From Eledone cirrhosa (Eukaryota): a stretch of DNA of 64,000 bases. The stretch is from NCBI GenBank assembly GCA_964016885.1, contig OZ024756.1:14012001-14076000 (forward strand), in the 5' to 3' direction. The position numbers and the translations under genes are program-made. Shown here in pieces: positions 15,526 through 61,099 of this stretch. Each line of letters starts with the position of its first letter. Position 1 is the first letter of the stretch. The notes under the pieces were generated by a model, which worked only from the letters and a program-made list of their open reading frames with translations, had not been told where the DNA came from and did no database searches.

Positions 15526-15871
15526 ATTATTAGAAATGTAAGCTATCGCCGTATTTTGACTAAAGAAATTAAAGAAATTATTTAGCCTGATAGTGGGGTT
15601 AAGAACCCTCGGAGAAATGGAAAAAGATGAGTATTGACGTACATGGGAGTTGAACACACATCTTTGGTTATCCGGACCACTGTGGTACCATTTACACCAA
15701 TGTAAATGCTAGCACAGTGGTCCGGATAACCAAAGATGTGGGTTCAACTCCCATGTACGTCAATACTCATCTTTTTCCATTTCTCCGAGGGTTCTTAACC
15801 CCACTATCAGGCTAAATAATTTCTTTAATTTCTTTAGTCAAAATACGGCAATAGCTTACATTTCTAATAAT
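15526..15871. repeat. 346-bp near-perfect palindrome (171-bp arms, 4-nt loop) with tRNA-like A/B boxes
   Basis: arms match with about 4 mismatches around loop CCAA 15697-15700; TAGCACAGTGG...GGTTCAACTCC in the right arm; embedded in TA/TG microsatellite. Confidence 0.9.
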
Positions 15872-16261
15872 TTCAACCCACTCACTGTTTCGAAAATATT
15901 CTTACTTCATATGTGTATATATATGTGTGTGTATATATATGTGTGTATATATATATATTTTTAAGGAACGATCGACTTTCATCAAATCGGACCGAGGGAA
16001 CAATGTTTCTGTTGGTCTTTCCAATTGCTAATACTATCTATCGGTCGCAACTCCAGGTAGAAGGAGCAACGTGAAATAAAGTGTCTTGCTCAAGGACATA
16101 ACGCATCGCCTGGTCCAGGAATCGAACTCACAACCTTACGATTGCGAATCCAATTCTCTAACCACTCAGCCACATGCCTTCACATATATATGTATATATA
16201 TGTGTGTATATATATATGTATATATATTTATGTGTGTATATATATATTTATATATATTTAT

Positions 16262-18939: not shown

Positions 18940-20090
18940 CTTCAGCTTCGGCTTGTTCCTGTGAGGGGTTGGGTCTTCTGTATTACTGCGTGACGCCAGA
19001 GGTCACGGTCGTGTGTCATTTCCCTTGAGAGGTGCAATTGGGTAAGGTCGGCCTTTATCACCTCATCCCAGGTCTTCTTTGGTTTCCCCACTCCGCGGCT
19101 TCCATCGACTTCTAGTACTCTGCCCCTTTATATGCAGCTGTCATCCTTCATACGCATCACATGTCCATACCAACGCAATCTCCTCACCTGCACACAGCAT
19201 TTGATTCCTTTTATGCTCAGTCTCTCTCTCAATTCGTTTATACTTTGCCGTTTGCGTTTATTACTATTACACATCCATCGGAGCATGCAAGGTTCGTTTC
19301 TTTCTAATCTGCGCAAGTTTTTGACAGACAGCGCCCAGGTTTCACTACCATGTAACAATGCTGTTCTGCCTTTCATTTTGAGAGAAAAGCTTTTGCAGCT
19401 AGCAGTGGCAGTAGCGCCCTGAACTTCTTCCATCCCGTTCTTACCCTAGTTCTTGTACTTTCCGAACACCCACCTCCGCTGCTAATTCGGTCACCTAGGT
19501 AGCAGAAGCTGTCTACTGTTTCTACAGAGTCCTCCCAGAGTTTGGTGGTACTTGTTTCCTGTGGCTGTTTGGTGCTTGCTGTCCCAGCACAGCTGCTACA
19601 TGTGAAGCCTACATTCTTAGTTAAGCTTCCTGAGATCCCACTACATCTCTTGTGTACCCATTGTTTGCATTTGGGGCAGAGGATGGAGTTCCTACCTACA
19701 CGTTTCCTACATACTGAGCAAGGCCATTTCCCTGAGGGGATCTGGGTTCTGTTTTCTCGTCTACTTAAAAGAACCTTAGTCTTTGTCAGGTTGACTTTGA
19801 GACCCTTTCTTTCTAGTCCCTGCTTCCATGTTTGGAATTTCTTCTCTAGTTCCACCATAGATTCAACTATAAGTGCGAGATCATCCACATATAGGAGTTC
19901 CCATGGGCATCCGGTCTTAAACTCCTCCGTTATTGCCTGCAAAACTATAATGAACAGGAAAGGCCTAAGAACTGAGCCCTGGTGGACACCGACCTGTATA
20001 CTAAATTCCTCGCTATAGTCATTGCTGACTGTTCCTCTATACATGGCTTGTACAGCTTTCACAAGCCATTCATCTACTCCTAATTTTCTA
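18940..20090 (-). mobile_element. RTE-clade LINE fragment (RT + C-terminal region), frameshifted
   Basis: GVHQGSVL..FLF, PWELLYVDDLAL, GLKVN..KTK, PHD-like Cxx[31 protein letters not shown]. Confidence 0.93.
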
Positions 20091-20408
20091 GAAATGTGTA
20101 TGTTTATATATATAGTGTGTGTATATATGTATGTTTATATATATAGTATGTGTATGTTTATATATATAGTGTGTGTATATGTGTATGCTTGTCAGTATGA
20201 ATGTCATATCAACACTGTTGAAGGCCTGTGGTGACAGTTGTTTATGTTCCCCATAATATAAAACAAATAAAAACAGAAATAAAAACAGAAAAAGGTGTGG
20301 ATTGACATCAGGCCAGAATATATAAAAAATAATATGTCAGAAACACTTATGAGGATGATGATGATTGTGTTTAATGTTGTACTTGTTGTTGCTGTGATGT
20401 TAATAGTA

Positions 20409-22220: not shown

Positions 22221-22336
22221 TTAACCTTCTGGGTGCTCTAGGCGCCTTATGTCGCCAGTAGAGAAATCTCCCCTTAATACATAATGCAGTGTCAGGGGAA
22301 GCAATTCATAAAAAGATTCAATGTGCTAAAGGTTAA
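22221..22336 (+). mobile_element. small (~115 bp) TTAA MITE
   Basis: TTAACCTT...AAGGTTAA; inverted copy 30651-30777; interrupted copy 8063-8465. Confidence 0.75.
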
Positions 22337-22524
22337 CATGTATGCACAACCTTAGGTTTCAAGGTCCTGTTATGGTCAACACTGTATGGTGGAGGAGCTC
22401 TAATCGAGTGCCAGGACAAAATTACCCTGGCACCCAATGAGAGGCCAGTTTTGAAATGACACCTCCACTATACAGTGGTGGCCATAACTGGACTTTAAAA
22501 CCTATGGTTAAGCATACATGTTAA
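22333..22524. mobile_element. diverged fold-back element with degenerate hammerhead
   Basis: ttaacatgtatgc...gtggagg is inverted to cctccac...gcatacatgttaa; related copy at ~48587-48698. Confidence 0.55.

Positions 22525-29924: not shown

Positions 29925-29986
<62 letters not shown>
28760..29986. repeat. long (TA)n/(TG)n microsatellite (others at 22555-23127, 26365-26800, 27030-27360, 27550-27790)
   Basis: direct reading. Confidence 0.95.
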
Positions 29987-29988
<2 letters not shown>

Positions 29989-30168
29989 TAAAGATCCGAA
30001 GGCATGGTATAAATTTCCAATCAATTTAATCACGACACATGTTTCAATAAGAGATAGATCAATCGTGTAGCCATGATCGATTAATCGATCATGGCTACAC
30101 AATCTCTTATTGAAACATGTGTCGTGATTAAATTGATTGGAAATTTATACCATGCCTTCGGATCTTTA
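29989..30168. repeat. fold-back palindrome carrying only the 3' half of a hammerhead
   Basis: arms taaagatccgaagg.../...ccttcggatcttta centred on TTAA 30081-30084; GAAAC-ATGT-GTC in each arm. Confidence 0.85.
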
Positions 30169-30302
30169 TTTTGATGCAAATACTCCGTTTTACATCATCT
30201 AGCTGTTCCCATAAATGGAATTGGAGATATACAAAAGCGTGGAGTACTTAATATTGCTTACAAAAATTTATTGGATCGTTTGACACAACCAATAATACAC
30301 CT

Positions 30303-30346
<44 letters not shown>

Positions 30347-30405
30347 CAAGGCTCTGATACCATCAACACTATACACACAGAGCTGGCATATCTAAGAACT
30401 GACTA

Positions 30406-30461
30406 ACTGCCTGATGAGGTCATAGCCATTCAATGGCTATCATCGAAATATATATAGCAGT
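30406..30461 (+). ncRNA. type I hammerhead ribozyme (minimal, PLE-like)
   Basis: ACTGC-CTGATGA-GGT c ATAGCCATT c AATGGCTAT c ATC-GAAA-TATATA-TA|GCAGT; helix I ACTGC/GCAGT; predicted cleavage after 30456. Confidence 0.88.
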
Positions 30462-30951
30462 AAATAAAGGATTATGAGTTCATGCAATTGACTTATGTTT
30501 CGTCACTATATATATATATATATAATCATCTTTTAAAGCAGCCATTAAATGATGATGATGATATATATAAACAGTTGTGTCCTGCATGGATGTAAAGCAT
30601 GTAATGCATCTCTAACATGTATATATATGAATGCAAATAACAAACCATGTTTAACCTTTAGCACGCTAATAATTTTCATGAGTTGTTTGCCTTGCCACTG
30701 CATTATCTCTTTAAGGGGAGATTATTCTTACGGTGCCCTGTGTCGCCTTCAGGGCATTTAAGGTTAATATACATCTCCCAATTGTTTATGAGAGACATCC
30801 GGAAAGAGAGTTAAATATACATTATATTTTAAGATGGAGGGTTAAATATATATGTACCTCATTTTAAGACAGAGGGTTAACTCTACTTCAATTGTACGGT
30901 TTTAATTGTTAAACTTGCACGCTCTGGCTTAAGTATCGGGAATCATGCCTC

Positions 30952-30988
<37 letters not shown>

Positions 30989-31122
30989 TAGAAGGGGTAT
31001 TTAATTTGTTGGAAGTCCGACAAATATAAATGTTTATAACTGATTTAGAGCACTCAACTGGTTACTGGAGTAAATATTCAATGATATTAAATAAATGGAA
31101 ACTATATTTATAAAACCATATT

Positions 31123-31185
31123 TATTTTATTATATATATTTCAAGGGTACCAAAACACATTGGTACGCTTTCTTCAGATAAAATA
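31123..31185 (-). ncRNA. type I hammerhead ribozyme, left arm of palindrome
   Basis: rc: TATTTTAT-CTGAAGA-AAG c GTACCAA..TTGGTAC c CTT-GAAA-TATATA-TA|ATAAAATA. Confidence 0.85.
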
Positions 31186-31297
31186 CAAAGTTTGTTTTAT
31201 AAATAGAGACATATCGGTTGGATATTCTCTGGATAGAATATCCAACTGATAAGGTATGATTTTCATGGGTATGTCTCTATTTATAAAACAAACTTTG

Positions 31298-31360
31298 TAT
31301 TTTATCTGAGGAAAGCGTACCAATGTGTTTTGGTACCCTTGAAATATATATAATAAAATA
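31298..31360 (+). ncRNA. type I hammerhead ribozyme, right arm of palindrome
   Basis: TATTTTAT-CTGAGGA-AAG c GTACCAA..TTGGTAC c CTT-GAAA-TATATA-TA|ATAAAATA; predicted cleavage after 31352. Confidence 0.85.
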
Positions 31361-31425
31361 AATATGGTTCTATAAATATAGTTTCCATTTATTTAATATC
31401 ATTATATATATATATATATATATAT

Positions 31426-31962
31426 ATCATCATCATCATCGTTTAACGTCTATCTTTCACACTAGCATGGGTTTAGACGGGAATTGTCCCACTTGAGGCA
31501 AGATTGGTCATCTCGCTCGTAAAGGACTGTCTGGCGGGTTTTCTACAGCTGGATGCCCCTTCCTAACTCCAACCACGTTTACAGTGTGGACTGGGAGGTT
31601 TTTACCGTGTTACCTACATGGCCACATTACAGCGTGGACCGTATGTTTTTTTGTCGTGACACCTACACGACCTCATTTATTTAGGACTGGATGTTGTGGT
31701 ACCAACATAACTTTACAGAGAGAGGGGTGGTGTTGATGGTGGGGGTGGGAGTAGGGGTAGTGGGATGGGGGTGTATATTTGGTTAAGAGGTGCCTACTGA
31801 CTGTAGGTTTTGCTTTGTACATAGGCAAGGCGGGTTTTCTGTATTACTGCATAGCGCCAAAGATCTCGGTCCAGTGACATTGTCTTGGAGAGGTGTAAGT
31901 GTGTAAGGTCGGTATTTATCAAATCATCCCAGGTTTTTCTGGGTCTACCTACTCCGTAAACT
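31426..31962 (-). mobile_element. RTE LINE 3' end
   Basis: [35 protein letters not shown] plus the same 3' UTR and (GAT)n tail as 28362-28759. Confidence 0.9.
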
Positions 31963-36380: not shown

Positions 36381-36717
36381 CAATCTATCCTTCCTTTTGT
36401 TAAGTCAGTAGGCTCTAGTTTGAAGCAATTTAACTGCTATATCTAGCAACCAAAGAAGGGAGCCGCTGCAACCCATGATCGTTCAACCTGCTAGAAACTG
36501 TAGTTAAACCTCCCTCAAACCACACCCGATTACATCAGGTCAGATTTAATTGAGCAAACCTATGATGAAAATGGTTTTGTAACTATCGCAACATGTCCGG
36601 GCATTATATTCGGTATAAGATAAATTAAATGTATTGTACAAGAGAAATGGTTGCACTGGTATGGTCATGTGATGTGTAAGGAAATTTGGGGTTTCTGTTT
36701 GAAGTGAATGGTGCCTA

Positions 36718-39700
36718 TAGAAGAGGGAAAACTGAGATGACATAGAAGGAATAAAGAATTACTGGTACCTGTAGAAGAGGGAGAACTAAGACATAGAAGG
36801 AATAAAGAATTACTGGTACCTGTAGAAGAGGGACAACTAAGACATAGAAGGAATGGAGAATTACTGGTACCTGTAGAAGAGGGAGAACTAAGACATAGAA
36901 GGAATGGAGAATTACTGGTACCTGTAGAAGAGGGACAACTAAGACATAGAAGGAATAAAGAATTACTGGTACCTGTAGAAGAGGGAGAACTAAGACATAG
37001 AAGGAATAAAGAATTACTGGTACCTGTAGAAGAGGGACAACTAAGACATAGAAGGAATAAAGAATTACTGGTACCTGTAGAAGAGGGACAACTAAGACAT
37101 AGAAGGAATGGAGAATTACTGGTACCTGTAGAAGAGGGAGAACTAAGACATAGAAGGAATAAAGAATTACTGATACCTGTAGAAGAGGGACAACTAAGAC
37201 ATAGAAGGAATAAAGAATTACTGGTACCTGTAGAAGAGGGACAACTAAGACATAGAAGGAATGGAGAATTACTGGTACCTGTAGAAGAGGGAGAACTAAG
37301 ACATAGAAGGAATGGAGAATTACTGGTACCTGTAGAAGAGGGACAACTAAGACATAGAAGGAATGGAGAATTACTGGTACCTGTAGAAGAGGGACAACTA
37401 AGACATAGAAGGAATGGAGAATTACTGGTACCTGTAGAAGAGGGACAACTAAGACATAGAAGGAATGGAGAATTACTGGTACCTGTAGAAGAGGGACAAC
37501 TAAGACATAGAAGGAATGGAGAATTACTGGTACCTGTAGAAGAGGGACAACTAAGACATAGAAGGAATGGAGAATTACTGGTACCTGTAGAAGAGGGAGA
37601 ACTAAGACATAGAAGGAATGGAGAATTACTGGTACCTGTAGAAGGGGGAGAACTAAGACATAGAAGGAATGGAGAATTACTGGTACCTGTAGAAGGGGGA
37701 GAACTAAGACATAGAAGGAATGGAGAATTACTGGTACCTGTAGAAGGGGGAGAACTAAGACATAGAAGGAATGGAGAATTACTGGTACCTGTAGAAGGGG
37801 GAGAACTAAGACATAGAAGGAATGGAGAATTACTGGTACCTGTAGAAGGGGGAGAACTAAGACATAGAAGGAATGGAGAATTACTGGTACCTGTAGAAGG
37901 GGGAGAACTAAGACATAGAAGGAATGGAGAATTACTGGTACCTGTAGAAGGGGGAGAACTAAGACATAGAAGGGGGAGAACTAAGACATAGAAGGAATGG
38001 AGAATTACTGGTACCTGTAGAAGGGGGAGAACTAAGACATAGAAGGAATGGAGAATTACTGGTACCTGTAGAAGGGGGAGAACTAAGACATAGAAGGAAT
38101 GGAGAATTACTGGTACCTGTAGAAGGGGGAGAACTAAGACATAGAAGGAATGGAGAATTACTGGTACCTGTAGAAGGGGGAGAACTAAGACATAGAAGGA
38201 ATGGAGAATTACTGGTACCTGTAGAAGGGGGAGAACTAAGACATAGAAGGAATGGAGAATTACTGGTACCTGTAGAAGGGGGAGAACTAAGACATAGAAG
38301 GAATGGAGAATTACTGGTACCTGTAGAAGGGGGAGAACTAAGACATAGAAGGAATGGAGAATTACTGGTACCTGTAGAAGGGGGAGAACTAAGACATAGA
38401 AGGAATAAAGAATTACTGGTACCTGTAGAAGAGGGAGAACTAAGACATAGAAGGAATGGAGAATTACTGGTACCTGTAGAAGAGGGACAACTAAGACATA
38501 GAAGGAATAAAGAATTACTGGTACCTGTAGAAGAGGGACAACTAAGACATAGAAGGAATAAAGAATTACTGGTACCTGTAGAAGGGGGAGAACTAAGACA
38601 TAGAAGGAATAAAGAATTACTGGTACCTGTAGAAGAGGGACAACTAAGACATAGAAGGAATAAAGAATTACTGGTACCTGTAGAAGAGGGAGAACTAAGA
38701 CATAGAAGGAATAAAGAATTACTGGTACCTGTAGAAGAGGGAGAACTAAGACATAGAAGGAATAAAGAATTACTGGTACCTGTAGAAGAGGGAGAACTAA
38801 GACATAGAAGGAATGGAGAATTACTGGTACCTGTAGAAGAGGGACAACTAAGACATAGAAGGAATAAAGAATTACTGGTACCTGTAGAAGAGGGACAACT
38901 AAGACATAGAAGGAATAAAGAATTACTGGTACCTGTAGAAGAGGGACAACTAAGACATAGAAGGAATAAAGAATTACTGGTACCTGTAGAAGGGGGAGAA
39001 CTAAGACATAGAAGGAATAAAGAATTACTGGTACCTGTAGAAGGGGGAGAACTAAGACATAGAAGGAATAAAGAATTACTGGTACCTGTAGAAGGGGGAG
39101 AACTAAGACATAGAAGGAATAAAGAATTACTGGTACCTGTAGAAGAGGGACAACTAAGACATAGAAGGAATAAAGAATTACTGGTACCTGTAGAAGGGGG
39201 AGAACTAAGACATAGAAGGAATAAAGAATTACTGGTACCTGTAGAAGGGGGAGAACTAAGACATAGAAGGAATAAAGAATTACTGGTACCTGTAGAAGAG
39301 GGACAACTAAGACATAGAAGGAATAAAGAATTACTGGTACCTGTAGAAGGGGGACAACTAAGACATAGAAGGAATGGAGAATTACTGGTACCTGTAGAAG
39401 AGGGAGAACTAAGACATAGAAGGAATGGAGAATTACTGGTACCTGTAAAAGAGGGACAACTGAGATGACATAGAAGGAATGGAGAATTACTGGTACCTGT
39501 AGAAGGGGGAGAACTAAGACATAGAAGGAATGGAGAATTACTGGTACCTGTAGAAGGGGGAGAACTAAGACATAGAAGGAATGGAGAATTACTGGTACCT
39601 GTAGAAGAGGGACAACTAAGACATAGAAGGAATGGAGAATTACTGGTACCTGTAGAAGAGGGAGAACTAAGACATAGAAGGAATGGAGAATTACTGGTAC

Positions 39701-42700
39701 CTGTAGAAGAGGGAGAACTAAGCCATAGAAGGAATGGAGAATTACTGGTACCTGTAGAAGGGGGAGAACTAAGACATAGAAGGAATAAAGAATTGCTGGT
39801 ACCTGTAGAAGGGGGAGAACTAAGACATAGAAGGAATGGAGAATTACTGGTACCTGTAGAAGGGGGAGAACTAAGACATAGAAGGAATGGAGAATTACTG
39901 GTACCTGTAGAAGGGGGAGAACTAAGACATAGAAGGAATGGAGAATTACTGGTACCTGTAGAAGAGGGACAACTAAGACATAGAAGGAATGGAGAATTAC
40001 TGGTACCTGTAGAAGAGGGACAACTAAGACATAGAAGGAATGGAGAATTACTGGTACCTGTAGAAGGGGGAGAACTAAGACATAGAAGGAATGGAGAATT
40101 ACTGGTACCTGTAGAAGAGGGAGAACTAAGTCATAGAAGGAATGGAGAATTACTGGTACCTGTAGAAGAGGGAGAACTAAGACATAGAAGGAATGGAGAA
40201 TTACTGGTACTTGTAGAAGGGGGAGAACTTAGACATAGAAGGAATGGAGAATTACTGGTACCTGTAGAAGGGGGAGAACTTAGACATAGAAGGAATGGAG
40301 AATTACTGGTACCTGTAGAAGAGGGACAACTAAGACATAGAAGGAATGGAGAATTACTGGTACCTGTAGAAGGGGGACAACTAAGACATAGAAGGAATGG
40401 AGAATTACTGGTACCTGTAGAAGAGGGAGAACTAAGACATAGAAGGAATGGAGAATTACTGGTACCTGTAGAAGAGGGACAACTAAGACAGAAGGAATGG
40501 AGAATTACTGGTACCTGTAGAAGGGGGAGAACTTAGACATAGAAGGAATGGAGAATTACTGGTACCTGTAGAAGGGGGAGAACTTAGACATAGAAGGAAT
40601 GGAGAATTACTGGTACCTGTAGAAGAGGGAGAACTAAGACATAGAAGGAATGGAGAATTACTGGTACCTGTAGAAGAGGGACAACTAAGACATAGAAGGA
40701 ATGGAGAATTACTGGTACCTGTAGAAGAGGGAGAACTAAGACATAGAAGGAATGGAGAATTACTGGTACCTGTAGAAGGGGGAGAACTTAGACATAGAAG
40801 GAATGGAGAATTACTGGTACCTGTAGAAGAGGGAGAACTAAGACATAGAAGGAATGGAGAATTACTGGTACCTGTAGAAGAGGGAGAACTAAGACATAGA
40901 AGGAATGGAGAATTACTGGTACCTGTAGAAGGGGGAGAACTAAGACATAGAAGGAATGGAGAATTACTGGTACCTGTAGAAGAGGGACAACTAAGACAGA
41001 AGGAATGGAGAATTACTGGTACCTGTAGAAGAGGGACAACTAAGACAGAAGGAATGGAGAATTACTGGTACCTGTAGAAGGGGGACAACTAAGACATAGA
41101 AGGAATGGAGAATTACTGGTACCTGTAGAAGGGGGACAACTAAGACATAGAAGGAATGGAGAATTACTGGTACCTGTAGAAGAGGGACAACTAAAACATA
41201 GAGGGAATGGAGAATTACTGGTACCTGTAGAAGGGGGAGAAGTAAGTCATAGAAGGAATGGAGAATTACTGGTACCTGTAGAAGAGGGACAACTAAGACA
41301 TACAAGGAATGGAGAATTACTGGTACCTGTAGAAGAGGGACAACTAAGACATAGAAGGAATGGAGAATTACTGGTACCTGTAGAAGAGGGACAACTAAGA
41401 CATAGAAGGAATGGAGAATTACTGGTACCTGTAGAAGAGGGAGAACTAAGACATAGAAGGAATGGAGAATTACTGGTACCTGTAGAAGGGGGACAACTAA
41501 GACATAGAAGGAATGGAGAATTACTGGTACCTGTAGAAGAGGGAAAACTAAGACATAGAAGGAATGGAGAATTACTGGTACCCGTAGAAGGGGGAGAACT
41601 AAGACATAGAAGGAATGGAGAATTACTGGTACCTGTAGAAGAGGGACAACTAAGACATAGAAGGAATGGAGAATTACTGGTACCTGTAGAAGAGGGAGAA
41701 CTAAGACATAGAAGGAATAAAGAATTACTGGTACCTGTAGAAGAGGGACAACTAAGACATAGAAGGAATAAAGAATTACTGGTACCTGTAGAAGAGGGAC
41801 AACTAAGACATAGAAGGAATAAAGAATTACTGGTACCTGTAGAAGGGGGAGAACTAAGACATAGAAGGAATAAAGAATTACTGGTACCTGTAGAAGGGGG
41901 AGAACTAAGACATAGAAGGAATAAAGAATTACTGGTACCTGTAGAAGAGGGACAACTAAGACATAGAAGGAATAAAGAATTACTGGTACCTGTAGAAGGG
42001 GGAGAACTAAGACATAGAAGGAATAAAGAATTACTGGTACCTGTAGAAGGGGGAGAACTAAGACATAGAAGGAATAAAGAATTACTGGTACCTGTAGAAG
42101 GGGGAGAACTAAGACATAGAAGGAATAAAGAATTACTGGTACCTGTAGAAGAGGGACAACTAAGACATAGAAGGAATAAAGAATTACTGGTACCTGTAGA
42201 AGAGGGACAACTAAGACATAGAAGGAATAAAGAATTACTGGTACCTGTAGAAGGGGGAGAACTAAGACATAGAAGGAATAAAGAATTACTGGTACCTGTA
42301 GAAGGGGGAGAACTAAGACATAGAAGGAATAAAGAATTACTGGTACCTGTAGAAGGGGGACAACTAAGACATAGAAGGAATAAAGAATTACTGGTACCTG
42401 TAGAAGGGGGACAACTAAGACATAGAAGGAATGGAGAATTACTGGTACCTGTAGAAGAGGGAGAACTAAGACATAGAAGGAATGGAGAATTACTGGTACC
42501 TGTAAAAGAGGGACAACTGAGATGACATAGAAGGAATGGAGAATTACTGGTACCTGTAGAAGGGGGAGAACTAAGACATAGAAGGAATGGAGAATTACTG
42601 GTACCTGTAGAAGGGGGAGAACTAAGACATAGAAGGAATGGAGAATTACTGGTACCTGTAGAAGAGGGACAACTAAGACATAGAAGGAATGGAGAATTAC

Positions 42701-44867
42701 TGGTACCTGTAGAAGAGGGAGAACTAAGACATAGAAGGAATGGAGAATTACTGGTACCTGTAGAAGGGGGAGAACTAAGACATAGAAGGAATAAAGAATT
42801 GCTGGTACCTGTAGAAGGGGGAGAACTAAGACATAGAAGGAATGGAGAATTACTGGTACCTGTAGAAGGGGGAGAACTAAGACATAGAAGGAATGGAGAA
42901 TTACTGGTACCTGTAGAAGGGGGAGAACTAAGACATAGAAGGAATGGAGAATTACTGGTACCTGTAGAAGAGGGACAACTAAGACATAGAAGGAATGGAG
43001 AATTACTGGTACCTGTAGAAGAGGGACAACTAAGACATAGAAGGAATGGAGAATTACTGGTACCTGTAGAAGGGGGAGAACTAAGACATAGAAGGAATGG
43101 AGAATTACTGGTACCTGTAGAAGAGGGAGAACTAAGTCATAGAAGGAATGGAGAATTACTGGTACCTGTAGAAGAGGGAGAACTAAGACATAGAAGGAAT
43201 GGAGAATTACTGGTACTTGTAGAAGGGGGAGAACTTAGACATAGAAGGAATGGAGAATTACTGGTACCTGTAGAAGGGGGAGAACTTAGACATAGAAGGA
43301 ATGGAGAATTACTGGTACCTGTAGAAGAGGGACAACTAAGACATAGAAGGAATGGAGAATTACTGGTACCTGTAGAAGGGGGACAACTAAGACATAGAAG
43401 GAATGGAGAATTACTGGTACCTGTAGAAGAGGGAGAACTAAGACATAGAAGGAATGGAGAATTACTGGTACCTGTAGAAGAGGGACAACTAAGACAGAAG
43501 GAATGGAGAATTACTGGTACCTGTAGAAGGGGGAGAACTTAGACATAGAAGGAATGGAGAATTACTGGTACCTGTAGAAGGGGGAGAACTTAGACATAGA
43601 AGGAATGGAGAATTACTGGTACCTGTAGAAGAGGGAGAACTAAGACATAGAAGGAATGGAGAATTACTGGTACCTGTAGAAGAGGGACAACTAAGACATA
43701 GAAGGAATGGAGAATTACTGGTACCTGTAGAAGAGGGAGAACTAAGACATAGAAGGAATGGAGAATTACTTGTACCTGTAGAAGGGGGAGAACTTAGACA
43801 TAGAAGGAATGGAGAATTACTGGTACCTGTAGAAGAGGGAGAACTAAGACATAGAAGGAATGGAGAATTACTGGTACCTGTAGAAGAGGGAGAACTAAGA
43901 CATAGAAGGAATGGAGAATTACTGGTACCTGTAGAAGGGGGAGAACTAAGACATAGAAGGAATGGAGAATTACTGGTACCTGTAGAAGAGGGACAACTAA
44001 GACAGAAGGAATGGAGAATTACTGGTACCTGTAGAAGAGGGACAACTAAGACAGAAGGAATGGAGAATTACTGGTACCTGTAGAAGGGGGACAACTAAGA
44101 CATAGAAGGAATGGAGAATTACTGGTACCTGTAGAAGGGGGACAACTAAGACATAGAAGGAATGGAGAATTACTGGTACCTGTAGAAGAGGGACAACTAA
44201 AACATAGAAGGAATGGAGAATTACTGGTACCTGTAGAAGGGGGAGAAGTAAGTCATAGAAGGAATGGAGAATTACTGGTACCTGTAGAAGAGGGACAACT
44301 AAGACATACAAGGAATGGAGAATTACTGGTACCTGTAGAAGAGGGACAACTAAGACATAGAAGGAATGGAGAATTACTGGTACCTGTAGAAGAGGGACAA
44401 CTAAGACATAGAAGGAATGGAGAATTACTGGTACCTGTAGAAGAGGGACAACTAAGACATAGAAGGAATGGAGAATTACTGGTACCTGTAAAAGAGGGAG
44501 AACTAAGACATAGAAGGAATGGAGAATTACTGGTACCTGTAGAAGGGGGACAACTAAGACATAGAAGGAATGGAGAATTACTGGTACCTGTAGAAGAGGG
44601 ACAACTAAGACATAGAAGGAATGGAGAATTACTGGTACCCGTAGAAGGGGGAGAACTAAGACATAGAAGGAATGGAGAATTACTGGTACCTGTAGAAGAG
44701 GGACAACTAAGACATAGAAGGAATGGAGAATTACTGGTACCTGTAGAAGAGGGAGAACTAAGACATAGAAGGAATGGAGAATTACTGGTACCTGTAGAAG
44801 AGGGAGAACTAAGACATAGAAGGAATGGAGAATTACTGGTACCTGTAGAAGAGGGACAACTAAGACA
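36718..44867. repeat. 51-bp satellite (~160 copies) with ~3-kb higher-order duplication
   Basis: unit acatagaaggaatggagaattactggtacctgtagaagagggagaactaag. Confidence 0.97.
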
Positions 44868-45348
44868 TCTAAACTATAATAAAGAAAGGAGTGCGATTGC
44901 GTACGGTTTATAATTTTTTATCCCATTAGTAAAATAAGTTGGATTACTTTGAATAAATAATGAATGAATATTACATAATTTATCTACTAAATTTCGTGGC
45001 TTTTGATTAAATATATTTTATTGTTTATTTAAAGATTCACTTCTTTAAAATTTTCAAATGTCAACATTTCCGGTTAGCGATCGCTTAAATAAATATTCAT
45101 ATATTTCTGTCACTAATTTTCTCCTAATGCAGTTTATATATACTATCGTTTTTTTTTTATGTATCATGGATTACGTTACTGATTACATAAGACAGTGTAA
45201 CGCAGTCTTCGTTCAATTTCTGTGTATATTGTCAATTACGATTTTATTTGATGTATCATATCTACATGTATATATATTTGTGTATAATATCAATATACAC
45301 ACCACACATGCTAGCAGAAAACCATCCGAAGGGTGGTTTTTCTGCTAG
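44868..45348 (+). mobile_element. non-autonomous Helitron
   Basis: 5' TC, 3' CTAG preceded by a hairpin; inserted between A and T of the satellite unit aagacA|Tagaagg with no TSD. Confidence 0.9.
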
Positions 45349-47498: not shown

Positions 47499-47582
47499 AT
47501 GAGTACTGCGGTGGTTTTAGGCGGAGGCATTAGTGGTTTGTCCGCTGCCTATTATTTACGAAAAATACCTAAATTTTCCAAA
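47499..47582 (+). CDS. PPOX: PPOX coding exon 1 (MSTAVVLGGGISGLSAAYYLRKIPKFSK)
   Basis: ATG at 47499, GGGISG dinucleotide-binding motif, donor gtaagt. Confidence 0.93.
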
Positions 47583-49739: not shown

Positions 49740-50112
49740 AATGATATTAAATAAATGGAAACTATATTTATAAAACCATATTTATTCTATTATATATATT
49801 TCAAGGGTACCAAAACTTTTGGTACGCTATCATCAGATAAAATACAAAATGTTTTATAAATATACCTTAACGGTTCAAGTTATCCCTTGGTCATGTCAAA
49901 TATTTATAAAACATTTTGTATTTTATCTGATAATAGCGTACCAAAATTTTTGGTATCCTTGAAATATATATAATAGAATAAATATTGTTTTATAAATATA
50001 GTTTCCATTTATTTAATATCATTGAATACTTACTCCAGAAAACTGTCGAGTGCTCTGAATCAGTTATAAACATCTATATTTTTTGGATTTCCAACAAATT
50101 AAATATCTCTTC
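49740..50112. mobile_element. second copy of the fold-back hammerhead element (more degenerate)
   Basis: arms nearly identical to 31081-31403; one core CTGATGA (minus strand, 49830-49836), the other mutated to CTGATAA. Confidence 0.75.
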
Positions 50113-51425: not shown

Positions 51426-51560
51426 GTGCTGCTTTTGGAAGGGAGCCACCATCTTGGTGGTTGGTTAGACACCACACGTCATTCTGACGGAGCTGTATAT
51501 GACCACGGTCCTCAGAGTATTCGAGCCACAGGGAAAACTGCTCACAACACACTTTCACTG
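51426..51560 (+). CDS. PPOX: PPOX exon 2 (VLLLEGSHHLGGWLDTTRHSDGAVYDHGPQSIRATGKTAHNTLSL)
   Basis: atgcag / gtcagt. Confidence 0.94.
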
Positions 51561-53693: not shown

Positions 53694-53868
53694 ATATATA
53701 CTTATACATGACAAATGATGATGATGATGATGTATTTATATATATATGTAGGTGAGTTTTATTGTAGCTCAATAAAGCAATGCAAATATCGGATAAGTAG
53801 CACTCTACAGTTTGTAGGACTGGAGTATAAATAATATAAGATCAAAAGATGGTTAAAAGAGTTCCAAG

Positions 53869-53939
53869 TATTTTATTATGCGCATTTCAAAAACAAATAT
53901 CATCATGAGATGATATCTGCGTTTTCATCAGATAAAATA
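53869..53939 (-). ncRNA. type I hammerhead ribozyme, left arm of palindrome
   Basis: exact reverse complement of 54058-54128. Confidence 0.88.
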
Positions 53940-54057
53940 GGGATACATGATATAAAGGTTAAAAAATACTTGTGAATAGTGAAGTTTTAAATCAACATAT
54001 GCTGATTTTAAACTTCACTATTCACAAGTGTTTTTTAACCTTCATATCATGTATCCC

Positions 54058-54128
54058 TATTTTATCTGATGAAAACGCAGATATCATCTCATGATGATAT
54101 TTGTTTTTGAAATGCGCATAATAAAATA
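54058..54128 (+). ncRNA. type I hammerhead ribozyme, right arm of palindrome
   Basis: TATTTTAT-CTGATGA-AAA c GCAGATATCATC tcat GATGATATTTGT t TTT-GAAA-TGCGCA-TA|ATAAAATA; palindromic helix III ATGCGCAT; predicted cleavage after 54120. Confidence 0.9.
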
Positions 54129-54194
54129 CTTGGAACTCTTTTAACCATCTTTTGATCTTATATTATATATATATATATATATATATATTTGCAG

Positions 54195-55709: not shown

Positions 55710-56105
55710 GGAGGCACATGGCTTAGTGGTTAGAGCATTGGGCTTGCAATCGAAAGGTTCGGAGTTCAATTCTCGAACCGGGTGATGTGTTGTTTCCTTG
55801 AGCAAGACACTTTATTTCACATTGCTCCAGTTTACTCAGCTGTAGAAATGAGATGATAGGGACTGGGGTCCCTATCATTCCACTGCAAAGTGGTCGTGGA
55901 GGCGCCACGGCAAAAAAGCACCCAGCACTCACTGTAAATGAGGTTGGTGTTAGGAAGGGCATCCAGCTGTAGAAATCAAGCCAGAATCAGTTCCTGTATG
56001 AGCAAGACAAGGTCAGCCGACCGGACACTGCCCACAACAGGACAACCCGTCTAACCCATGCTAGCGTGGAAGAACAGACATAAAACGGTGATGATGATGA
56101 TGATG
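55710..56105 (+). mobile_element. SINE family A copy (long tail variant)
   Basis: full head, core and tail ending (GAT)n. Confidence 0.88.
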
Positions 56106-56323
56106 TATCTACGTGGAGGTGTGTTTGTATGGAGATGTAAGTGTAGGTTATATATAAGTATTAAAGGTGCCATAGGATTGCATTCACAAGTCGTTTGCCA
56201 AGATGTGCAATCGATGCTATTGGGGGAGTATCGATAATAATAAATAGGAAACAAAGAATCAGTGTTACATCATATACATATCTAATTACATATGTTTCAC
56301 TGCTGTGAGTCCTCATGTGTAAA

Positions 56324-56416
56324 CACATATCTGAGGAGCTTTTGATTCCAGTGTCAGGAACGAACATAATCGATCATTCCTCGAGCCGATCGGCAGTGAA
56401 ACATATGTAATGTGTG
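56324..56416 (+). ncRNA. type I hammerhead ribozyme with large loop II
   Basis: CACATAT-CTGAGGA-GCT...AGT-GAAAC-ATAT-GTA|ATGTGTG; inverted partial copy of the 3' half at ~56284-56305. Confidence 0.65.
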
Positions 56417-56491
56417 ATTAAATATGTATTATATATGATGCAATACTGATTCTAGAAATAGGTTTTACTCATTTACCAGGTGTATGTTAGC

Positions 56492-56925
56492 TCATCATCA
56501 TCATCACCATTTTACGTCCGTTCTTCCACACTAGCATGGGTTAGACGGGTTGTCCTGTTGTGAGTAGTGTCCGGTCGGCTGACCATGTCTTGCTCATACG
56601 GGAACTGATTCTGGCTTTATTTCTACAGCTGGATGCCCTTCCTAACACCAACCTCATTTACAGTGTGTGTCGGGTGCTTTTTTTTTTTTCAGTGGCGCCT
56701 ACACGTCCACTTTACAGTGTGGGCTGGGTACATTTTTGCCGTGGCACCTCCACGACCACTTTGCAGTGGAATGATAGGGACCCCAGTCCCTATCGTCTCA
56801 TTTCTACAGCTGAGTAAACTGGAGCAATGTGAAATAAAGTGTCTTGCTCAAGGAAACAACAACGTCACCCGGTCCGGTCCGAGAATTGAACTCACAACCT
56901 TTCGATTGCAAGCCCAATGCTATGA
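56492..56925 (-). mobile_element. SINE family A copy (long tail variant), inverted relative to 55710-56105
   Basis: reverse complement of 55710-56105 over most of its length. Confidence 0.88.
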
Positions 56926-57980: not shown

Positions 57981-58148
57981 ACTTTGATTTTCAAGCCTAG
58001 TATTTATTTTATCAAACTCTTTTTATCGAACTGCTAAGTTACAAGACCTAAACAATGAACAGTTGTGTTAAGTGTTCAACATACAACAATATCTGTTTTG
58101 TTCTGAAAGTGTTGATTCTAACCGTTTCTTTGTTCTCTTGTTAATTAG

Positions 58149-58342
58149 TGAAAGAAGAAGTTGATGACAGCTGCCCATTAATTAGGAAAGCTCAAGCTGA
58201 AAATTGGCGGCTGTATTCTCTGAGGAATGGTCTCCATCAGTTAGCGGAATCTCTGGCCAATGCTGTGGTCAGTGACCCTATGTGTGAGGTGAGGCTAAAC
58301 ACACCTTGCACAAGGATAGATTTGGTGCCAGGAAAAACAACG
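58149..58342 (+). CDS. PPOX: PPOX exon 6 (KEEVDDSCPLIRKAQAENWRLYSLRNGLHQLAESLANAVV...PGKTT)
   Basis: aattag / gtgagt. Confidence 0.92.
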
Positions 58343-59552
58343 GTGAGTTATATCTACACAACAAAATTTTATTTGGTATAATTGATTCTGAAATATTCTC
58401 AGTGGGCAGGGTGGTGGTTAGGAAAGTAAAATAAGTAGAGCATGACACAGACTGTCTTGTGGTATTTAGTTACATCCCTTTACACAGATTTTTTTTTTTA
58501 TCTTGCCGAAGTCAACTTTGCCTTTACATTGAGATTTTTTGGGTGCGAGATCAGTTCTGCTGTCAATATAATTAACTCTACCTTATCTTCCCCCTCCCCC
58601 ACTCAAATTTAGGCCTTTTATCTTTGTAAGAAATCATTATTACGATTACTATTAAATCCCACAAGTCCCCAGTCCACACTGTAAAGTGATCATGTAGGTG
58701 TCATGATAAAAAGCACTCGTTCCACTCTGTAAATGTGGTTGATGTTAGGAAGGGCATCCAGTAGTAGAAACCAAGCCCAAATCAGTTCTGCATGAGCAAG
58801 ACATTGTCATCTGATCTGGCATGTCTCTCAATGGGACATCTTATCTAGCCCATGCTAGCGTGGAAAAATGGACACTAAGCAGTGATCATGATGTTTGGTA
58901 TTTAGATTTAAATCTGCCCTTCTTATGTTATTCAATCTGTTTACCAACAACCATCATATAGCTGCTGTACATCTCTCTTTCTTTCTCTCGCTTTCTCCTC
59001 GCACTCTCCTCTCCTTCTCCCCCACTCTCTCTCTCTCTAATGTGTGGCCATGTGTCATTGTTCTTAAATCAATAATTATGACAGGATGGTGGCGTGTCAG
59101 ATAAAATGTCACCATTGTGTTATTTGTTCTGGTTCTTTACGTTGTGAGTTCAAATCCCACAGAGGTCAACTTTGCCGTTCATCCTTCGTTCCTTCTATTC
59201 CAAAGTACCAGTCAAGTGCTGGGATTGATTTAATCAACTTTGCCCTTCTCCAGAAAATGTGCTTAAAATTAGAGATCAGTATTTAATAGTTATGACCATG
59301 AAAGAATGGTTTCTGGTTTAGGCACAAGGCCAACAATTTTGGGGGAAAAGCGAAAGTTGACCCAGTGCATTACTGGTACATTATTTTATCAGCCCCATAA
59401 GGATGAAAGACAAAGCTAACCTCAATGAGATTTGAACTCATAACGTAAAGGGCCATAACTCTAGACTGCTAAGCATGTTGTCCAACACTCTACTGATTCT
59501 GCTAATCCACCGCCCTGAAACCATGAAATAATGTGATTTTTTAAAACTCTAG

Positions 59553-59875: not shown

Positions 59876-61030
59876 TGGTGGGACGGGAGTGTATTTTGGT
59901 TAAGAGGTGCCTACTGACTGTAGGTTTCGCTTTGCACTTAGGCAAGGCGGGTCTTCTGTATTACTGTGTAGCGCCAAAGATCTCGGTCCAGTGACATTGT
60001 CTTGGAGAGGTGTAAGTGTGTGAGGTCGGAATTTATGAAGTCGTCCCAGGTTTTTCTGGGTCTGCCTACTCCGTGGCTACCGTCTATTTTGATCGCCCTG
60101 CACTTTTTTATACAGCTGTCGTCTTTCATGCGCGTCTTTCATGACCATACCAACGTAATCTTCTCTCAAGTAAACAGCTTCTGATCCCTCTTATTCCTAA
60201 TTTCTCACTTAGTTCATTTATGCTTTGCCGTTCACGTATATTACTATTACACATCCAACGGAGCATGCAAGCTTCGTTCCTCTCTAGTCTGCGTATATCC
60301 TCTGCACACAATCCCCAGGTCTCACTGCCATGTAACATTGCTGTTCGTATGCAGGCATCATACAGCTTGCCTTTCATTTTTAGAGAGAAACATTTAGCGG
60401 CCAATAGTGGTATAAGCTCTCTGAACTTTTTCCATCCCGTTCTGACTCTAGCTACTGTACTTTCAGAGCACCCTCCACCACTGCTGATTTTGTCACCCAG
60501 GTAACGGAAGGTGTCCACTATTTCTATAGAACCATCTGTGCAATGGAATGAGCTAGTATTCTGTGGGCACTTGCTGCTACTTATTGCACCTGAGCACCGG
60601 CCACATATAAAATCTATATTCTTAGTTAGCTTACCTGTGATCCCACTACATCTTTTATGCACCCATACTTTGCATTTGGGACATAAAATGGAGTTTCTGC
60701 CTACTCCTTTCCTACACTGAGCATGGCCATTTCCCAGATTGGACCAGTGCCCTATTTTCCTTCCTATATACTAGAACTTTAGTCTTAGATAGGTTAATTT
60801 TAAGGCCTTTTGATTCTAGGCCATGCTTCCATGTTTGGAATTTCTTCTCTAGTTCAGCCATTGATTCAGCTATGAGCGTTAGATCATCAGCGTATAGGAG
60901 TTCCCATGGGCCGCCGGTCTTGAACTCCTCTGTTATAGCCTGAAGGGCAATAATAAATAGGAAGGGGCTAAGGACGGAGCCCTGATGAACACCAACTTTT
61001 ACGCTAAACTCTTCACTATATTCGATCAAT
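59876..61030 (-). mobile_element. RTE LINE fragment in PPOX intron 7
   Basis: GVHQGSVLSPFLF, ELLYADDL, FRYLG, WYGH, GRPRKTW; frameshifted. Confidence 0.93.
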
Positions 61031-61099
61031 AAGTTTATTTGATCAGTCTGACCTAGGGCTAAACAACAACAGCCAGTTTACTTTTTGTTTTTTATTCAG

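Follow-up and report, generated by a model that had tools for sequence, protein, structure and literature searches.

Head-to-head hammerhead palindromes in Eledone cirrhosa as probable short insertions of a high-copy unit, likely a PLE pLTR

Two palindromes in the DNA analysed here, a window of 64,000 nt from Eledone cirrhosa, share one build: in element A (30988-31403) and element B (49740-50112) two arms stand head to head, each arm carries a type I hammerhead motif, and an extension is present on one side only. We consider it probable that A and B arose as short insertions, head to head, of an abundant hammerhead unit, likely the terminal repeat (pLTR) of a Penelope-like element (PLE), with palindromes that were likely built separately at each insertion, by twin priming. 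Membership among the PLE derivatives, summed over twin priming, snap-back with later deletion and random stubs, is very likely. This is a new family of a described class, its layout being already in print and its parent unseen; it stands out by its long tail, by a 5' boundary confined to a few nucleotides and by a hammerhead variant that is invisible to Rfam. The features are collected in Table 1.

Table 1. Features of elements A and B, of the related elements C and D, and of neighbouring coding remnants in the window
Feature	Position	Strand	Basis
Retroelement remnants, reverse transcriptase then PHD finger	19376-20134, 60129-61077	-	Pfam; no link to palindromes
D, lone 165-nt hammerhead unit between (TA)n tracts	30343..30507	+	descriptor, sequence
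(TA)n tract, probable target, adjoining A's tail end	30957..30987	.	sequence; other copies likewise run from tail into a TA tract (reads)
A tail, one-sided extension, 92 nt	30988..31079	-	likeness to B and C tails
A tailed (left) arm, without 20 nt present in right arm	31080..31236	-	alignment
A minus-strand hammerhead motif of type I with core CUGAAGA, cut predicted after 31131	31123..31185	-	descriptor
A small central hairpin, loop 31229-31234 the true symmetry centre, at the family's 5' boundary	31213..31250	.	fold
A untailed (right) arm, 169 nt, complete from 5' boundary	31235..31403	+	alignment, reads
A plus-strand hammerhead motif of type I with core CUGAGGA, cut predicted after 31352	31298..31360	+	descriptor
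(TA)n tract adjoining A untailed arm	31404..31427	.	sequence
Flavin oxidoreductase exons	47499-47582, 51426-51560, about 58145-58378	+	Pfam Amino_oxidase, NAD_binding_8
B untailed arm, core CUGAUGA (C3 at 49836), U.U at helix II base	49740..49862	-	alignment
B centre	49863..49900	.	sequence comparison
B tailed arm, core CUGAUAA (G8A; C3 at 49927)	49901..50023	+	alignment
B tail, then (CA)n(TA)n	50024..50112	+	alignment, sequence
C, sister-family element of the same layout, tail 53749-53831	53749..54165	.	descriptor, alignment

An earlier note on this DNA had reported the palindrome of A with the cores CUGAAGA (minus strand) and CUGAGGA (plus strand); both are borne out, the start lying at 31080 and not at 31081. 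Its statement that the cores differ only at N7 also holds: over 126 aligned positions the two arms of A show two differences, one at N7 and the other outside the ribozyme. B was correctly described as inverted relative to A, with another centre and with G8A, which appears as CUGAUAA in the right arm. Inside one element the arms mismatch at 4/123 positions in B and 3/162 in C, while the arms of A compared with those of B show 6–10 differences and 3 gap columns, with the same diagnostic positions in both arms of each element. The one-sided extensions resemble that of C, as the note had noticed: tail likeness amounts to 86% for A and B, 67% for A and C and 68% for B and C, and the local scores of the last two pairs were equalled by 1 and 0 of 2,000 letter shuffles, respectively. 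The B centre shows a weak likeness to a patchwork of the family's upstream segment, taken from both strands, with local scores equalled by 141 and 510 of 5,000 shuffles. Spliced introns as the source of the deletions in A and B were rejected, GT..AG borders being absent by eye.

Tracts of (TA)n flank A, C and D on both sides and B on one side. A flavin oxidoreductase gene, which we take to be protoporphyrinogen oxidase, holds B between its exons 47499-47582 and 51426-51560 and C in an intron farther along; its start codon lies 16 kb downstream of A. A fold-back moving as one unit, either as a MITE with terminal inverted repeats or as a hairpin RNA, would suit the long inverted arms, the high copy number and the TA-rich target, and yet it is largely refuted and in our view very improbable. 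The outer ends of A, B and C do not form inverted repeats, with matches at 5, 8 and 6 of their 20 terminal letters, and no discrete target duplication was found at these three elements, which have only the TA run in common, so that the TIR/TSD hallmarks named in the earlier note as speaking against its view are absent. In addition, the centre varies from copy to copy, the arm variants are element-specific, and a ribozyme fold kept across families would be out of place in a DNA element.

The hammerheads of A and B are assigned at the level of the motif, and their cleavage sites are predicted. In A, C3 lies at 31177 on the minus strand and at 31306 on the plus strand, and each core leads into helix II, then GAAA, a palindromic helix III of 6 nt and the cut triplet AUA. 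A type I hammerhead descriptor applied to the whole window returned five motifs, one in each arm of A (31306+, 31177-) and of C (54066+, 53931-) and one in D (30411+), and none in each of 15 approximately dinucleotide-preserving shuffles. The arms of B do not pass this descriptor; in both, helix II begins with a U.U mismatch and helix I contains a G.U, which had gone unremarked. Rfam hammerhead families gave no match up to E=1 in the window or up to E=10 in 30330-31420, and on these motifs Rfam reported hairpin-type microRNA models only. The lone unit D extends 68 nt ahead of C3 and 51 nt beyond the cut and has the canonical G10.1-C11.1. A distance of 51 nt also separates the predicted cut at 31352 from the end of A's right arm, and the units of A, C and D all measure 165–170 nt, with about 70 nt before C3 and the cut 45–51 nt from the arm end.

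Between families, the fold is evidently kept at the level of sequence comparison. Helix I, 8 bp long, is identical in A and C, and helices II and III differ, just as the note had stated. The covariation check that it proposed was carried out as a hand count over the first nine helix II positions of A, C and D: eight positions pair in 24/24 cases, five of them with changes on both sides, and at the fourth position C faces C or U instead of pairing, in B as well as in A, C and D. The descriptor required helix II positions 1–5 only, and pairs 6–9 were thus unconstrained by the search; these pair in 12/12 cases in A, C and D, with a probability of about 1e-5 at window composition. Helix III is a 6-nt palindrome in all three, UAUAUA or UGCGCA.

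Within the family, the evidence for conservation of the fold appears weaker. Of 91 variants, 40 are listed; these include 14 variable sites within the 63-nt motif, all of which spare the 11 invariant positions of the core (P = 0.047), a result that we do not take as proof. N7, which is mostly U in family reads (1,056/1,200 and 1,099/1,126), is the sole core site among these 40. A helix II variant at 31165, from the same 40 of 91, is present in about 28–42% of X9 reads and would break a pair unless a partner change exists outside the variants listed. B is decaying: G8 is gone from one of its arms, and neither arm retains the first pair of helix II. The idea that structure is better conserved than sequence, put forward earlier, therefore stands between families and fails within this one.

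Considering that the hammerheads face away from each other, RNA read through an element from either side contains one sense motif behind its own complement. When such read-through RNA was folded, the hairpin was favoured over the ribozyme fold by 73–93 kcal/mol in each of the six strand cases, and the ribozyme helices had probabilities close to zero. In RNA of a single arm, the ribozyme fold lay 1.1–3.5 kcal/mol above the alternative. The two hammerheads are thus predicted not to form a working pair, the read-through RNA being one hairpin, and the function implied by the expression paired hammerhead is contradicted by these models, in which it describes a layout. RNA starting at the centre would avoid being trapped in the hairpin, and its helix III could then form with a second sense copy. 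For B and C, which lie in introns, the predicted hairpin would account for the tolerance of a ribozyme on the transcribed strand.

The abundance of the family was estimated from sequencing reads. Four of eleven listed runs (X9, X1, X5 and X7) were aligned to 30972-31300 at 80% likeness; at most 62% of sampled words were present in these runs, which may come from a related species, and no RNA run was listed among those containing the sequence. X9 had 28,531 of 12,467,656 reads on the family, the majority from the sister family; X1 had 8,295 contigs, X5 had 49, and X7 had one, less than 90% alike. The A/B family is a high-copy repeat family, with roughly 1,900–6,400 arms per 1.5–5 Gb genome if reads are presumed even, RAD reads being uneven in coverage. 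Depth in X9 was about 2,350 over the ribozyme core and about 970 over the tail, and this ratio of about 2.4 to 1 is close to the two arms per tail expected for the layout. At the loose end before 31090, 1,744 reads show (TA)n joined to the untailed arm end. The sister family, found in X9, X1 and X5 reads, has 31083-31143 in common with A, another helix II and a diverged tail; its loose ends lie at 31083, 31143 and 31152, with 13,176 X9 reads before 31083 and 5,456 behind 31143, and its helix II pairs by eye with the same mismatch at the fourth position.

The junctions between arms bear on how the palindromes arose. The undeleted form of A's centre, a joint 31213/31269, occurs in 142 reads. At least nine further head-to-head junctions were detected, each resting on one contig or two reads and detectable only with a short piece between the arms; their cut sides lie at 31016, 31024, 31055, 31058, 31073, 31099, 31116, 31154 or 31191. 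Seven of the nine have intervening letters, and six of these seven start the other arm at 31225-31237, within 13 nt; under an even spread, the clustering of these 5' starts has a P of about 0.002–0.003, a value that does not include detection bias. The remaining two rejoin at 31235, with the intervening letters not given. In five junctions one side consists of tail sequence only. Together these data outline a narrow 5' boundary about 70–80 nt ahead of the ribozyme core and two 3' ends, one 51 nt beyond the predicted cut and another 92 nt farther out. No pile-up of ends was seen at the predicted cut 31131 among the five places listed.

The same PLE origin could also have given a perfect palindrome by self-priming (snap-back) at a fixed 5' end, with the differing centres produced later by asymmetric, palindrome-stabilising deletions. 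A small central hairpin forms the symmetry point of both A and C, a 20-nt deletion sits beside the centre in the left arm of A, self-priming has been proposed for such junctions in the accessible text of PMC3846280, and asymmetric deletions are described as frequent at inverted junctions in the corresponding part of PMC8701086. What makes this reading unlikely in our view is that in six of the seven mapped junctions the boundary is kept within 13 nt on one arm and the other arm lacks about 45–220 nt, which would require strictly one-sided loss; lone units such as D also do not fit. Moreover, a mirror copy cannot contain what its template lacks, so that tail-only junctions need two primings or a later one-sided loss. 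The earlier proposal of independent snap-back events is therefore upheld in one part and not in the other: separate formation is supported by the 2–4 arm differences within elements against 6–10 between them and by the nine further junctions, whereas plain snap-back is disfavoured by the five tail-only junctions and by the centre of A, a hairpin with a 20-nt deletion in one arm. Because palindromes acquire asymmetric deletions (PMC8701086, in part), differing centres alone are no proof of separate snap-backs.

The boundary could alternatively be an artefact of a short reference and RAD sampling, the copies then being random 5'-truncated stubs of a full-length autonomous PLE of Neptune or Poseidon type. 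PLE copies are usually strongly 5'-truncated, according to the available portions of PMC8557442 and PMC8969392, depth upstream of the arm is about 270–440 compared with about 2,350 at the core, and 159 alignments stop at 31204. As the junction starts are clustered and a 165–170-nt unit recurs in three families, we hold this reading to be more doubtful still than snap-back with later deletion. The boundary also coincides with 164 alignments that stop at 31237, beside a depth of 256; many of these copies may nevertheless continue past that point into a longer element.

A further alternative, dispersed monomers of a non-LTR retrozyme amplified through circular RNA cut by the hammerhead, would be consistent with the type I hammerhead, the palindromic loop 3 and the short AT-rich unit, and such monomers have been described, in the parts seen of bioRxiv 10.64898/2026.07.22.740005 and PMC7229834, as dispersed and traced to pLTRs. 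A head-to-tail array of the unit is, however, absent from the window and from the 15 of 21 joints listed, and the unit does not end at the cut site; we regard this as the least probable of the readings. According to the same partial texts, retrozymes are short non-coding type I hammerhead units like ours, traced to pLTRs, and differ in forming head-to-tail arrays that are cut into circles, whereas A and B are head to head with ends that ignore the cut site.

In the twin-priming account that we favour, a short uncut pLTR RNA would begin at the 5' boundary, and PLE protein supplied in trans would copy this RNA and nick both strands of a (TA)n tract. Reverse transcription would then start at two internal sites, the arm end and the tail end, and the two cDNAs would be joined at their far ends, one usually reaching the RNA 5' end and the other stopping anywhere. 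The hammerhead would be cargo inherited from the pLTR, with a second sense copy needed for helix III. The protein properties in this scheme are borrowed from the anole element, whose PLE protein, in purified form, was shown to cleave AT-rich DNA on both strands, to extend both, and to start at two internal RNA sites bounding the tail on an uncut RNA template (PMC11167929). The internal promoter is borrowed by analogy from Drosophila Penelope, whose pLTR contains one according to the accessible part of PMC2377424.

The layout agrees with published PLE insertions and thereby supports the earlier view of a mobile, hammerhead-bearing family of PLE type. As far as the available text goes, such insertions are described as an inverted 5'-truncated copy with a 30–40-bp tail and a bias towards microsatellites (PMC8557442, PMC8969392), their head-to-head junctions show 18–38-bp palindromes (PMC3846280), and the origin of PLE inverted repeats and tails is still called open (PMC8557442). 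EN+ PLE insertions (Craig et al. 2021, PMC8557442; Arkhipova et al. 2013, PMC3846280; both in part) resemble our elements in the head-to-head inverted copy, the one-sided tail, the small junction palindrome, the unit near 180–220 bp and the microsatellite target without clear duplication. They differ in tail length, 30–40 bp as published compared with 83–92 nt in A, B and C; here the 5' ends cluster at one boundary, and A and B have no reading frame between the arms.

PLE hammerheads, in the accessible text of Cervera and de la Pena 2014 (PMC4209133), include dual minimal hammerheads on opposite strands, 100–700 bp apart, with a palindromic loop 3. Like ours, they are of type I with a short palindromic helix III implying dimer cleavage, have an enlarged helix II and occur as opposed pairs at that distance; hammerhead dimer cleavage is reviewed in PMC6765202, also seen in part. 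In contrast to those of Cervera and de la Pena, our motifs have a longer helix I (8 bp), a longer helix II spacer (27–36 nt) and the C.C/C.U mismatch at the fourth pair, and they lack the additional base behind position 9; A and C have A10.1-U11.1 where G-C is usual, and Rfam gives no hammerhead hit on any of them. Since long-helix-II hammerheads fall outside the Rfam models and outside the 7–17-nt spacer of one published core search, such ribozymes may be undercounted.

PAc, a Poseidon element of the green anole studied in vitro (Frangieh et al. 2024, PMC11167929), is alike in its two 3' ends bounding the tail and its AT-rich target, and we count as a further likeness that its ribozyme is uncut in the copied RNA. 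The PAc frame begins in stem II and its tail is short, whereas the A/B family is known from DNA alone. An open frame of this kind, read from the AUG of the hammerhead core, was considered and rejected, as it stops after 14 codons.

A Naiad parent, which the earlier note had listed among its candidates, appears unlikely. Naiads share the (TA)n target, the inverted copy and the tail, but lack canonical hammerheads according to the parts seen of PMC8557442, and A carries the full motif. Three family motifs gave no match in the available supplement of PMC8557442, where a line end may hide one, and the 3' ends of four cephalopod Naiads found there are unlike A by eye. Neptune or Poseidon is the likelier parent clade, Neptune being suggested solely by the hammerhead and the microsatellite bias. 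In the window, Pfam on the 150 longest of 199 filtered frames found no GIY-YIG domain that would reveal a PLE parent; two RT fragments are present, each with a PHD finger attached and positioned away from the palindromes. Short stubs, for their part, are not required to contain a PLE frame. Metagenome pattern scans for relatives returned no loci and then five, which lack the helices and any likeness to A and were set aside as chance. A literature search that omitted most subscription journals and Repbase found no publication on the A/B family.

We tentatively raise the possibility that the unit is a SINE-like parasite of Penelope: a pLTR-only RNA of about 260 nt, its 5' end set by an internal promoter and its 3' ends by internal RT starts, present in thousands of copies, never with any reading frame, and inserted by twin priming on both strands, so that one genome would hold several such families with covarying hammerheads that Rfam misses. 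If this is true, the junctions would be a genome-scale record of a dimeric PLE enzyme using two templates. Thousands of short copies with mappable junctions would be a resource in which counting could separate snap-back from twin priming.

The surroundings of A hold related insertions and other repeats. Three (TA)n-flanked insertions lie within 1.4 kb, namely 29986-30308, D and A. The first of these is a palindrome with arms of about 90 nt, a 137-nt one-sided extension and (TA)n on both sides; its arms contain GAAA, six letters and UC, located 48 nt before the arm end, and are possibly the 3' half of a hammerhead truncated inside helix II. The window as a whole is AT-rich animal DNA with many microsatellites, tandem repeats and tRNA-like repeats. 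At 15526-15911, TA/TG repeats enclose a palindrome of 346 nt (96%) that is extended on one side by about 40 nt and has no hammerhead; a weak tRNA-like head opens each of its arms (18.1 and 17.4 bits with Rfam tRNA, below the cut-off of 29). Judged by its sequence, it looks like a tRNA-headed SINE inserted with a PLE signature, and no published example of this combination stood out in the literature search. Imperfect inverted repeats (64–81%) occur at 3535-3741, 22333-22524, 59126-59459 and 55734-56921, the last two of which look like SINE-like copies in opposite orientation. A full-length U6 snRNA match (108 bits, 8311-8416, minus strand) directly follows a SINE-like repeat, and an 8-kb array of a 51-nt unit with 96–97% matches, at 36709-44868, has long open frames on both strands.
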